NCBI GenBank assembly: GCA_947587485.1
Contig: CANPXZ010000001.1
Span: forward strand, 89,683 to 153,682
From: an uncultured Oscillospiraceae bacterium
GTDB lineage: Bacteria; Bacillota; Clostridia; Oscillospirales; Oscillospiraceae
DNA length: 64,000 nucleotides
Direction: 5' to 3'
Shown: positions 42,001-45,000 of the stretch, piece by piece
How positions within the stretch are numbered: position 1 is the first letter of the stretch
How the letters are laid out: every line of letters starts with the position of its first letter
Program-made: the position numbers

Positions 42001-45000
42001 TGGACGTTCCCCGGTACATCAAGCACCCGGAGAACCTGTACTACATCCCGACCAAGGACACCTCGGTGTCTTATGCCGAGAAGTTCGCCAACAGGCTGCC
42101 AAACCCCTGGCGCGTGCTGTTCTGAAAAACCGCCCCGGCCCTGCCACGCAGGACCGGGGTTTTTCATGCAGATTTCCGGACAAGGAGGGAACAACCGTGA
42201 CGGAAGAAAAACAGGAATATGGACTTGATTTTGACCTCGGATACAATGGCAGGATCGAAAAAGTCGGCATCGAGGTCGCAAGATACAGCGACAACGGCCG
42301 CCTGTTCGTCGGGCTCATCGCCGACGACGGGGAAGGCTGCCCGGGACCGGCCGCAGACCTGACGGTGAACATCCCGGAATTCACCATGAAACCTGGGGAG
42401 GCCGCCATCACGGACGACATGCGCCGCCAGGTCCTGAAATTCATCCAGGACAACCGCCTGGCTGAGGACACCGGCAAGACCGCGTTCTCCGGGATGGGCA
42501 TGTACCCGGTGTTCCGGTTCGACCTGGAACGGCTCGCGCAGTTCGCCCCGGATGACGTGGCGGACTTTAAGAAGGCATGGGGGATCTCGTGACATGGGTG
42601 AAAACTATGGGAAATACGCATACCCTGTCCGGGAGACCGTGGAAAAGCTCCGCCGGGAATACCCGTCCGGGACCCGCGTCCGGCTCGTCTCGACGGCTGA
42701 CCCGTGCCCTGACACAAAACCGGGCGACACGGGCACGGTGAACTTCGTCGACAACACCGGCTCGGTCTTCATATCCTTCGACAACGGTTCCCTGCTCGGG
42801 ATCCAGTACGGGCTTGACGAAATCCAAAAAATTTAACAGAGGGGAGGCGCCGCATGGACGCATTTCTTGACAGGCTGTTCGACGATGACGCGATCTGGGA
42901 AAAGGCCATCGCCGGCGGCGCCGAAAAGCGTATCAAAACGAAGGTCCTGGAAAACTTCACAGACCCGAATTACCGGGACAGCCTCAAATCCCAGATCCGG
43001 GACGGGAAGAAATCCATCACGCCGCCACACGAGGCCCAGGTCCCGAAAGATGACGGGACGATGCGCACGGTATACGTCAACATGGCGGAGGACCGGATCC
43101 TGTTCGCTGCCATAAACGAGGCGCTGTTCCGGTATTGCTCCGACATGGTCCATCCGTCCTGCATGTCGTACAAATCCGGCGTCGGGTGCGGCAAGGTCGC
43201 CCGGGAAGTGGCGAAATACATCCGGGAAAACTGCCGCGAACTCGACCATATTGGCTGGAAGATCGACCTATCCAAGTACTTCGACACGGTCGACCGCAAA
43301 TACATCGAACAGGTTTTCGCCGCCGTCGCTTCACGCCTCGGCCCGTCGGCATTGCTGACGCTGCTGGATGCTTATTATCACGACGACCGGCTCCAGGCAC
43401 TGGACGGGCACATGTTTGAGAAATACACCAGCCTGCGCCAGGGTTGTGCCGTGGCGTCCTTCCTGGCGGACTCCGTCCTGTACGGGATAGATGATGCCAT
43501 GTCAAAGCTGGACGTCGGTTTCTGGCGGTACAGCGACGACATCCTGATCCTTGGCCCGCACGCTGACGTCGCCTTTGAGGCATGTTCCAGCATGCTCGCG
43601 GAAATGGGCCTGTCCATGAACCAGAAAAAGATCGAACGGCTCACCAACGGCAAATGGTTCACATTTTTGGGGTTCTCCCTGCGTGACGGTGAAATATCGC
43701 TGTCAAAAAAGCGCCTGGGAAACTTCCAGAGGGCGATCCTGAGCCGGACCGTGAACGCGGCGCACCAGGCGGGCTCCGACAGGGCCATGCAGCGCGTCGC
43801 ATCCTGGCTCTATGAGAAGGGGCCGTCCGGATACGGTTACGCCGACGGGATCCTGCCGGTCCTGACTTCGGCGCAGGACCTGAAACAGATGGACGCCTAC
43901 ATCCTGGACTGCCTGCGGGCCTGCGACACCGGGCGCGCGAAGCTCGGCGGCCTCGGGTACAACAAGTCAGGAAACGGCGGCGTGATCGAACGCGGACGCG
44001 GGCGGAACGTATCAGAAAACCGCAAAAAGCGCCCGCACATCGACGGCTATACGCCGCTCACCTATATGAGGTCCCTGTACCGGAACGCGCCGGCGGCTTA
44101 CGCGGCCTATACCAACCTGATGCTGGCCGGCAGCCGTGCCATGGGTACGGACACCATGTAGAAAGGAGATATTGCCAAACATGAAATACCTTGGGAAACA
44201 AGTGAACGGCAGGGCCACCCGGGACAACTTCATCCGTTCCATGGACCTGGCCCTGCACAAGGACCCGGACGCCGCGCTGGACTGCTACTGCCGTTACTGG
44301 TTTTCCAGTACGCGCAAGCAGTACCTGAACGACGCCCTGAGCCACGTGGCCGAGAGCTCCCTGTTCTGGCCGAAACGGGCCTTTACGGACATGGTCGACG
44401 AGATCGTCATGGACATGTCCGGTACCGGCGTCGATGAGAAAATGCTGGCCCGTGACGCGGACAGGCTCTGCGCGAGATTCAACCTGTGGGCATCGTCCCG
44501 CAAAGCCAACAAGCCGACACTGGAGGACATCCGCAAGGACGTGAAGGCGTTCGAGGCCAAGTACAAGTACAAGTGCCCTGACACCTACCGCTCCTGCTGG
44601 ATGAACACCGGCGCCTTCGTGACACTGTCTTACGGCATCAAATACGAAGGCTTCCTCATGCCGAAATGCACAACCCCGGAACAGTCGCTCTCGCTGCTCA
44701 AGAAATGCGCCATGGAGGTCGTGGCCGACATGGACCACACCGTGGACGACCGGCTCTTCCGGCTCTGTCACGCGCTCTATACGCAGCGGCTGAACACCAT
44801 CCCGGGGATGGCCTGACACACAATCCGGCGGCTCGGCCGGAACATCAAACAAGGCAAGACGGCCGCACGCGTCCGCCCCATAGGAATGAGGGGGCGGACG
44901 CGTTGGATGACCGAAAACATGAAGTTTATCGATTCCAGGAAGACATTGGGGATTGGCGATGAAAAGAGCCACCTCGGCCGTGTTCCGGTTTGTGTTTTCG

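Follow-up and report, generated by a model that had tools for sequence, protein, structure and literature searches.

A 64,000-nucleotide stretch of DNA from an uncultured Oscillospiraceae bacterium (assembly GCA_947587485.1, contig CANPXZ010000001.1, positions 89,683 to 153,682; hereafter the window) carries a reverse transcriptase (RT) gene whose product, by its profile scores, is a full-length member of the UG27 group. The gene is followed by that of a small partner protein, by a structured non-coding RNA (ncRNA) and by a palindrome-rich non-coding tract, and this order is kept in at least 16 distinct loci, over RT identities down to 40% and GC contents of 35 to 65%, which bears out the proposal of an earlier reading of the DNA from its letters alone (the sequence-only reading) that the downstream non-coding region belongs to the same unit. 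We interpret the set as a UG27-type RT module of a large, uncultured mobile element of gut Firmicutes, in which ncRNA-dependent synthesis of complementary DNA (cDNA) would serve the element, an interpretation that we rate as somewhat better than an even bet. The lineage of the window is a deep variant of UG27 with a layout that was previously undescribed.

The Reverse Transcriptase and the UG27 Group

The RT gene (42854-44161, plus strand) encodes 435 amino acids (aa), of which residues 63-275 match Pfam RVT_1 (E 4e-18). The palm motifs listed in the sequence-only reading are present in this open reading frame (ORF), including the catalytic YSDD, and R225, Y226, S227, D228 and D229 (RYSDD) are invariant in an alignment of 29 homologues, so that the enzyme, judged from its conserved motifs, is predicted to be catalytically intact. 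The same reading had held that the protein fits no recognizable class. However, the PADLOC profile RT_UG27 matches residues 2-419 over model positions 3-416 of 420 (E 1.2e-135, 450.8 bits), and the RT is therefore no orphan; with its class known, the central claim of that reading falls. The runner-up profiles are UG26 (E 3.8e-33), followed by UG17, Drt9/UG28 and UG4, and Drt9 (E 2.8e-20), Drt2 (E 7.8e-10) and the retron-type profiles all score far below UG27. A sub-threshold RdRP_1 is the sole Pfam match besides RVT_1, and a fused effector domain, which the sequence-only reading had also judged to be absent, was found neither by Pfam nor by PADLOC. In total, 2576 homologues of the RT were collected at E <= 1e-10.

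The AlphaFold2 (AF2) model of the RT is confident, with a predicted local distance difference test (pLDDT) score of 90.5. Its top fold match is the group II intron RT GsI-IIC, with a template modelling (TM) score of 0.64-0.68 over nearly the whole protein, followed by DRT9 (TM about 0.6), G2L4, the RT of a diversity-generating retroelement (DGR), and DRT2. By sequence, the nearest proteins in the PDB are group II intron RTs, retron-type RTs and RT-Cas1, the group II intron RTs being the best over residues 41-309 at an identity of 18-20%. No UG27 structure is present in the PDB.

UG27 is a group of the class 2 UG/Abi RTs and was defined by Mestre et al. (2022; NAR 50:6084, PMC9226505). Its RTs were found mostly in predicted human-gut phages with no enrichment in defence islands, and they are accompanied by two clusters of partner proteins without known domains and by a putative ncRNA of three long stem-loops, located in the intergenic region downstream of the RT (PMC9226505). 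The function of the group was reported as unknown; an addiction or anti-defence role has been proposed for it and a non-defence role predicted (PMC9226505). The accessible literature after Mestre et al. (2022) contains no functional work on UG27; a 2026 preprint (10.64898/2026.09.22.753630) mentions the group and cDNA many times and may settle parts of the present interpretation. A UG27-type RT, 43% identical over 92% of the query, is also carried by the cultured Bacteroides phage BS-TP1 (PQ571274.1, 79393-80589), where the gene is annotated as 'tail protein', and this phage could provide an experimental handle on canonical UG27.

As a canonical set we took the best 80 IMG/VR loci (L001-L080) from an alignment search, with RTs 39-45% identical to that of the window. 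At least 60 IMG/VR loci share the order RT, a gap of about 1.2 kb, a protein of about 154 aa (c4) and one of about 356 aa (c3). The latter is present in 72 of 83 loci and c4, which has no Pfam match, in 65 of 83. We assume that c3 and c4 correspond to the clusters 337 and 346 of Mestre et al. (2022).

The Partner Protein

Downstream of the RT, the longest ORF (44136-44816) would encode 226 aa from a GTG codon. Homologues align only from residue 16 of this longer ORF, and hence the start was placed at the ATG at 44181, giving a protein of 211 aa (p211, of the family p210; 44181-44816, plus strand). The p211 gene begins 19 nt past the RT stop codon in the same orientation. RT and p210 genes adjoin in every locus of the window's lineage, confirming the earlier suggestion that the 211-aa gene is real and linked to the RT. 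This lineage was assembled from relatives at 48-89% RT identity taken from ENA, Logan, NCBI and JGI assemblies, and from a sister lineage (L132) reached via the protein encoded next to the module, an AAA ATPase (AAA 52% and RT 40.6% identical, GC 35%, 305-kb contig), in which the gene order is the same and the p211 homologue has 189 aa. RT and p210 diverge at a similar pace (48-65% identity), faster than their neighbours (61-87%).

The p210 family is tiny, consisting of 56 clusters at 90% identity, with 7 representatives among 1.84 billion proteins, and an exhaustive HMMER search with p211 returned nothing beyond this small family. No match to p211 was obtained in Pfam, PADLOC or PHROG, nor by sequence in the PDB. 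Structure prediction, which the sequence-only reading had proposed for the C-terminal region of the RT and for the 211-aa protein, placed the RT nearest to GsI-IIC as described above and gave for p211 a confident all-α model of nine helices (pLDDT 89.8) with no fold match in the PDB or BFVD.

A relationship between p211 and c3 is suggested by profile comparison. hhalign aligns the C-terminal halves of the two over 71 columns (E 1e-4), the common motif being W..GAY.T...I..FP...SL; matches between the p210 and c3 hidden Markov models (HMMs) are reciprocal, and one c3-type ORF in the locus L105 is matched by both profiles. On these profile matches p211 is probably a remote homologue of the C-terminal part of c3, that is, a cut-down c3 relative. 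No c3 or c4 gene adjoins the RT of the window. A c4-like domain does occur in the window, 18 kb from the RT and fused to DUF488, in a 274-aa protein (62451-63272, plus strand) whose N-terminal half is c4-like (aa 44-139; hmmsearch E 1.8e-6, hhalign E 5.9e-5) and whose C-terminal half is DUF488-N3a (Pfam E 1e-17).

As a side observation, seven near-identical strains (L124-L130) have the same RT protein sequence, and 20 variable columns among them fall into one 250-nt bin (locus positions 5751-6000) at the 3′ end of the RT gene and the 5′ end of the p210 gene. Most other bins hold 0-2 variable columns, and the VWA gene contains a second cluster (locus positions 3001-4000). Such clusters are possibly recombination tracts.

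The Structured Non-coding RNA

Between p211 and the next gene, which encodes a ClpB-like AAA+ ATPase (46562-48244), lies a non-coding gap of 1745 nt (44817-46561). Relatives conserve this gap over its first ~400 nt and its last ~135 nt, but not in between. Near its start, 13-bp arms of perfect complementarity (44867-44879 and 44891-44903) form a GC stem-loop on the plus strand (44867-44903), exactly as the sequence-only reading had it, and relatives carry a hairpin of different sequence at the same place after the p210 gene. Because no U-tract follows, this stem-loop is no typical intrinsic terminator.

The ncRNA is about 150 nt long, lies on the same strand as the RT and starts ~250 nt beyond the p211 gene. 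Its core (45064-45152, plus strand), represented by a covariance model that we call R1, consists of a hairpin P1 with the near-invariant sequence CCCG-GCGCA-GGG, a three-pair helix, and a long hairpin P2. Among 13 distinct sequences, 94.2% of the cells in the core are paired, compared to 78.1% in shuffles, and compensatory changes on both sides were observed in 17 of the 24 base pairs. None of 500 shuffles reached the observed pairing values, and no slid register came close either. R1 finds one match per locus, on the plus strand, scoring 96.4 bits in the window as against less than 19 bits on the minus strand, and it also recovers the element in four loci outside its training set, namely L091, L092, L120 and the sister lineage L132 (24.9 bits, E 9e-5). 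The RNA-structure z-score over the region ranges from -2.8 to -4.3. An Rfam scan of 42000-47000 at E <= 1 yielded no match to any family. The P1 motif has a lone match in the canonical locus L015, which looks coincidental.

A third stem-loop, P3 (45151-45206, plus strand), has a GGGG...CCCC closing helix around a variable inner hairpin according to 13 homologue folds and their alignment. The closing helix hardly varies, and the support for P3 is accordingly weaker than for P1 and P2. A long-range GGGG/CCCC helix closing the whole 280-nt block had also been considered and was replaced by the local P3 reading, neither of the two being proven. The conserved block on the ncRNA side ends at 45219.

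Upstream of the core, the box TGTATAACCACGAGC (45016-45031, plus strand) is the left copy of a motif shared with the region upstream of the AAA gene. L083, L084, L093, L118 and L120 each contain exactly two copies of the 15-nt motif GTAAAGNNAYGCGAC, which precede R1 by ~50 nt and the AAA gene by ~60 nt, respectively. In AT-rich relatives the motif reads TATAAT or TATAAA, which is why we regard it as a promoter-like box; we infer that it may act as a promoter from which the ncRNA would start at about 45033. The right copy is part of a boundary block upstream of the AAA gene (46452-46510, plus strand), which was detected in all loci by nhmmer at 27-60 bits. A role of the box as a genome-wide promoter motif is not supported, since it is present only as two copies flanking the tract. 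In the seven near-identical strains mentioned above, three A-runs between p210 and the ncRNA (locus positions ~6503, 6556 and 6824) vary in length between 5 and 10 nt, and R1 of the window likewise has an A-run before it (45051-45059).

The Palindrome Tract

The middle of the gap is a hypervariable non-coding tract of ~1.2 kb (45220-46428) that is extraordinarily rich in palindromes. It contains 63 palindromic hexamers, compared to 20.7 +/- 4.4 in 1000 dinucleotide shuffles (z 9.5), and is the single hexamer maximum of the 64-kb window, in which other stretches have a mean of 19.7 and a maximum of 35; the palindrome island named in the sequence-only reading is thus borne out. The excess grows with length, from 28 palindromic 8-mers against 5.5 in shuffles, through 17 palindromes of at least 10 bp where 1.4 are expected (z 12.6), to 8 12-mers against 0.4. 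The gap as a whole holds 41 of the 64 possible kinds of palindromic hexamer and perfect palindromes of up to 18 bp, such as ACTGCAGGTACCTGCAGT. The excess peaks for dyads without a spacer and dies away by spacers of 7-9.

All relatives show a two- to three-fold palindrome excess at the equivalent place, in tracts of 1.1-3.2 kb and at GC contents from 35% to 65%, and 57 of the 64 hexamer kinds are enriched across these tracts. Within 100 nt past R1, the palindrome density increases from ~1.8 to ~4.7 per 100 nt in 13 of 13 loci, the sister lineage included. Palindrome richness is therefore conserved while the sequence of the tract is hypervariable. Indeed, on either side of the tract, as far as 45219 and from 46429 on, the window and the relative L088 share 87-90% identity, and nothing within the tract can be aligned between them. 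Between L081 and L088 the tract is shared, at 58-82% identity with many indels, the flanks being 83-99% identical, and here the turnover of palindromes can be followed. Palindromic hexamers were retained in 36 of 50 cases (72%), compared to 437 of 853 (51%) for other hexamers, and changed hexamers turn palindromic 2.6 times as often as in the flanking genes. In one instance the 12-mer GACTCCGGAGTC is swapped for GACATGCATGTC with its symmetry kept. The figures for retention and gain are signs of selection or bias acting on palindromes.

Several other explanations of the tract were tried and rejected. It is not a structured RNA, its z-score in 200-nt windows being about 0, the same as for shuffles. 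It is not a DGR variable region, as no second copy exists within the 64-kb window, in agreement with the sequence-only reading, which had seen no pair of template repeat and variable repeat (TR/VR). The only tandem or dispersed repeat in it is one of 15 nt, of the ATGATCAT type. The density of single-nucleotide polymorphisms (SNPs) in the tract is only modestly raised among near-identical strains, and it changes by indels and by the replacement of blocks rather than by substitutions specific to adenine.

Restriction sites were compared with expectations from a maximal-order Markov model. In the 62 kb outside the gap (1-44816 and 46562-64000), AAGCTT (HindIII) and CTCGAG (XhoI) are both absent where 8.7 of each are expected, and CTATAG and CTTAAG are likewise absent. 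Palindromes overall are slightly below expectation there (1021 vs. 1167). The absences point to avoidance of specific restriction sites.

Comparison with Known Systems

The module resembles canonical UG27 in the full-length profile match of its RT, in its occurrence on mobile elements of gut metagenomes rather than in defence islands, and in having a domain-less partner. A same-strand ncRNA of about three stem-loops lies downstream of the RT, as was put forward for canonical UG27, but here it comes after the partner gene, and R1 has no match in the canonical loci. The module differs in its order of RT, 211-aa protein, ncRNA and tract, and in its partners, since c4 is missing from the locus and p211 is a shorter and weak relative of c3. 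Furthermore, the canonical gap of ~1.2-1.9 kb matches the RT gene in its degree of conservation, even where nucleotide identity is 76%, and shows no palindrome excess, unlike the tract in the window. Such a gap may represent a long ncRNA, or genes hidden by stop-codon recoding. Canonical UG27 phages also avoid palindromic hexamers genome-wide (median 8.8 per kb, with 15.8 expected), whereas the flanks in the window's lineage have 13-19 per kb, near expectation, with no avoidance.

DRT9 (UG28) and DRT2 (UG2) are chromosomal defence systems, and their single-domain RTs are of the same class as the RT of the window. Complexes of these RTs with a cis-encoded structured ncRNA (PDB 9ioa, 9nlv, 9vma; 9c0i) are among the best fold matches and offer a mechanistic model, in which the ncRNA is both scaffold and template. 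However, their profile scores are those of distant relatives, as given above, no Rfam family matches the locus, their ncRNA sits upstream of the RT unlike that of the window (PMC9226505), and they have neither a p211-like partner nor a palindrome tract.

The module recalls a DGR, in which the RT is likewise accompanied by a small helical accessory protein, by a structured RNA beside the template and by a hypervariable sequence near the RT. Here, however, the hypervariable tract is non-coding and lacks a TR/VR pair, the RT reads LRQGCAVAS and not [IL]GxxxSQ, and p211 has no fold match to Avd. The group II intron RTs (GsI-IIC and G2L4), for which template switching and snap-back synthesis are described in the titles of PDB entries, are the best structural match of the RT, but intron RNA domains (Rfam, 42000-47000, E <= 1) and a maturase or endonuclease domain (Pfam) are lacking in the window, as the sequence-only reading had observed. 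That reading was also correct that VTG is absent from the RT translation; moreover, no retron RNA was detected with Rfam and no long inverted repeat brackets the ncRNA, so a retron is not indicated. As a loose analogy only, in an LTR (long terminal repeat) region of maize Sireviruses palindromic structure is kept and sequence is not (Bousios et al., 2016; PMC4728375), RT infidelity having been proposed as the source of palindrome gain and loss (PMC4728375). That case differs in being a eukaryotic LTR with repeats of one hairpin-forming palindrome of 17 nt, whereas the window has dozens of unrelated short ones.

Gene Neighbourhood and Carrier Element

Two genes upstream of the RT encode DUF4313 (42197-42592, plus strand; PF14190, E 1.4e-23) and DUF4314 (42552-42836, plus strand; PF14192, E 8.8e-23), the true start of the latter being probably internal, as relatives call a 77-aa product. 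The sequence-only reading had placed both in one operon with the RT and the 211-aa gene. Both are indeed there and the 211-aa protein is a conserved partner, but it is in the closest relatives alone (L081, L082 and L088) that the two DUF genes stand beside the RT; they are absent from L083, L085, L118-L123 and L132, and because of this confinement they are not conserved partners of the RT. Just past the VWA-like gene, a GC hairpin of 12 pairs between an A-run and a T-run (42133-42159) looks like a bidirectional terminator, in which case DUF4313, DUF4314, RT and p211 would form a separate transcription unit.

In relatives the RT is preceded by LysM (minus strand), a 244-aa protein, a primase-like protein, a 258-aa protein, MoxR AAA and VWA-like, and followed by the ~210-aa protein, a gap of 1.7-3.7 kb, the ClpB-like AAA and UvrD. 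The module thus occupies a fixed place in a replication block (primase-like, MoxR, VWA, RT, AAA, UvrD, UDG) in every relative, and the neighbours in the window include primase-like, MoxR/VWA, AAA+, UvrD helicase, UDG and DNA polymerase genes. This position inside a conserved replication block accords with the UG27 trait of residing on mobile elements rather than in defence islands. In L085, L086, L120 and L123 the predicted UvrD-type helicase has ~550 aa, as against ~900 aa in other relatives, and in L085, L086 and L123 an ORF with a faint LAGLIDADG_3 match follows the shorter form. This pattern hints that the helicase gene of these relatives carries an insertion of the intein or intron type.

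The relatives come from metagenome assemblies and from metagenome-assembled genomes (MAGs) labelled Oscillospiraceae, Muribaculaceae and Lachnospiraceae, the closest being a 92-kb contig of an Oscillospiraceae MAG. A single-protein search of IMG/VR gave no close relative, and neither did phage and plasmid databases, plasmid matches being weak. PHROGs gave no capsid or terminase match in the 64-kb window. On the minus strand, PHROG and domain matches mark a cargo region of conjugation and surface type (10739-28259) that includes a PHROG match to a 'transfer protein' (10739-11536), a sortase (21395-22435) and a 1895-aa TQ-ester adhesin with four T-Q ester-bond domains (22569-28259). A partition-protein match (28406-29662) lies just outside it. 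Instead of a phage, the carrier may thus be a conjugative plasmid or a phage-plasmid.

Proposed Mechanism and Alternatives

By analogy with the RT-ncRNA complexes of DRT2 and DRT9, the RT would bind the ncRNA, the near-invariant P1 loop being the likely recognition element, and would copy part of the same transcript into cDNA, with p211 acting as a cofactor or effector. The module would serve the element in establishment or counter-defence and not the host. That it serves the element is most likely because it lies among the replication genes of a mobile element and not in a defence island, and a counter-defence or establishment role, which was also proposed for the group (PMC9226505), is plausible. 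Given a conserved partner, ncRNA and tract in constant order, it is reasonable to suppose that the RT acts on an adjacent non-coding template, as the sequence-only reading had suspected. More weakly held is the extension of this scheme to the tract itself, which might be the 3′ tail of the ncRNA transcript and would therefore be the template of the RT, its cDNA carrying many self-complementary sites able to pair between copies. We hold it as a tentative idea, more doubted than believed, that the tract is tied to the RT in this way or as a sequence repeatedly rewritten through it.

A number of points weigh against the proposed module. Transcription, binding of the RNA by the RT, and cDNA are all predictions, drawn from sequence and analogy. 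R1 has no match in the canonical UG27 loci at E <= 1, which leaves the homology of the two ncRNAs unproven. The promoter-like box is weak in the window and lacks sigma-70 spacing, and neither a terminator nor a 3′ end was found for the ncRNA, so that its joint transcription with the tract is conjectural. The link between p211 and c3 has low scores (hhalign probability 55-57%; 18-22 bits for the reciprocal HMM matches), the gene matches leave phage versus conjugative plasmid ambiguous, and UG/Abi RTs with a tested function are mostly host-defence systems.

According to the main rival, the short structured ncRNA is all that the RT uses and the palindrome tract is a separate neighbouring feature, either regulatory or structural DNA upstream of the ClpB-like AAA gene or a weakly constrained spacer under local mutational bias (template switching, quasi-palindrome correction). 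This is possible, though we lean away from it. The unconserved sequence with its many indels would fit such independence, as would the modest SNP density among near-identical strains, the lack of RNA structure beyond that of shuffles, and the canonical UG27 loci, which have no such tract and are presumably functional. A neutral spacer, however, would lose a size of 1.1-3.2 kb and a two- to three-fold excess across GC contents of 35-65% and down to 40% RT identity. Moreover, in all 13 loci the excess sets in no more than 100 nt from the ncRNA end, it is found nowhere else in the 64-kb window, and palindromic hexamers are kept better than other hexamers. The remaining readings, of defence, origin and decoy, are less likely. 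An abortive-infection or superinfection-exclusion system carried by the element, protecting the host cell against competing phages like DRT2, DRT9, AbiK and other UG/Abi RTs do, would agree with the record of the UG/Abi superfamily, whose tested members are mostly anti-phage (PMC9226505), with DRT9 and DRT2 being among the closest solved folds after group II intron RTs, and with the defence cargo that mobile elements often carry. It is nevertheless improbable, as UG27 is not enriched in defence islands and has a predicted non-defence role (PMC9226505), the module is fixed in the replication block of every relative instead of in a variable cargo region, and PADLOC finds no defence partner beside it.

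A role in replication, with the tract as origin or initiation zone and with the ncRNA as the source from which the RT would make a DNA primer, draws on the position of the module between primase-like, MoxR/VWA, AAA+, UvrD, UDG and DNA polymerase genes, and dyad symmetries are common at origins. Origins are, however, conserved and co-evolve with their initiators, while the tract is hypervariable, without iterons or tandem repeats and without an AT-rich dip; the GC skew does not switch at the tract, the switch of gene strand and AT skew lying near 36-37 kb, and canonical UG27 phages have no tract. Hence, with a tract that is hypervariable and lacks repeats and a change of skew, an origin is very unlikely. 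Finally, the tract could be a restriction-site decoy, the RT multiplying DNA with Type II sites that would soak up host enzymes. The polylinker-like content of 41 of 64 palindromic hexamers in 1.7 kb would suit this purpose, as would the enrichment of 57 of 64 kinds across relatives, the dyad symmetry that is strongest at zero spacer, and the lack of overall palindrome avoidance in the window's lineage, unlike in canonical UG27 phages. But the avoided AAGCTT and CTCGAG are also absent from the tract, and tract content correlates slightly positively with tolerance in the rest of the genome (rho 0.24) where a decoy needs the opposite. On account of these two results we consider the decoy the least probable of the readings. 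In addition, the enrichment rises with palindrome length to 18 bp, which restriction sites do not need, and Type II enzymes turn over, making titration inefficient.

Implications for UG27

Few large RT groups reside, as UG27 does, on phages and mobile elements instead of in host defence islands. The lineage of the window offers a compact and sharply bounded form of UG27, in which the RT is joined by a single small partner and by a ~150-nt ncRNA whose covariation is clear. As far as checked, three things are new, namely the sub-architecture of an RT with a short partner and without c4, the ncRNA family, and a tract conserved free of sequence in its palindromes and coupled to an ncRNA. If the tract is unrelated to the RT, the sub-architecture within UG27 and the ncRNA family would still be new. 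If it is tied to the RT, the product would be a long RNA or cDNA with 50-70 different self-complementary sites, a multivalent, self-pairing nucleic acid whose function is set by palindromy rather than by sequence, and hence a new kind of RT-associated non-coding element compared with multicopy single-stranded DNA (msDNA), DGR template repeats, the concatemers of DRT2 and the poly-dA of DRT9. As template or product of the RT, the tract would stand for a new principle, selection for self-complementarity and not for sequence. The lineage makes it directly testable what the RT of a mobile element copies, and what purpose the copy serves.

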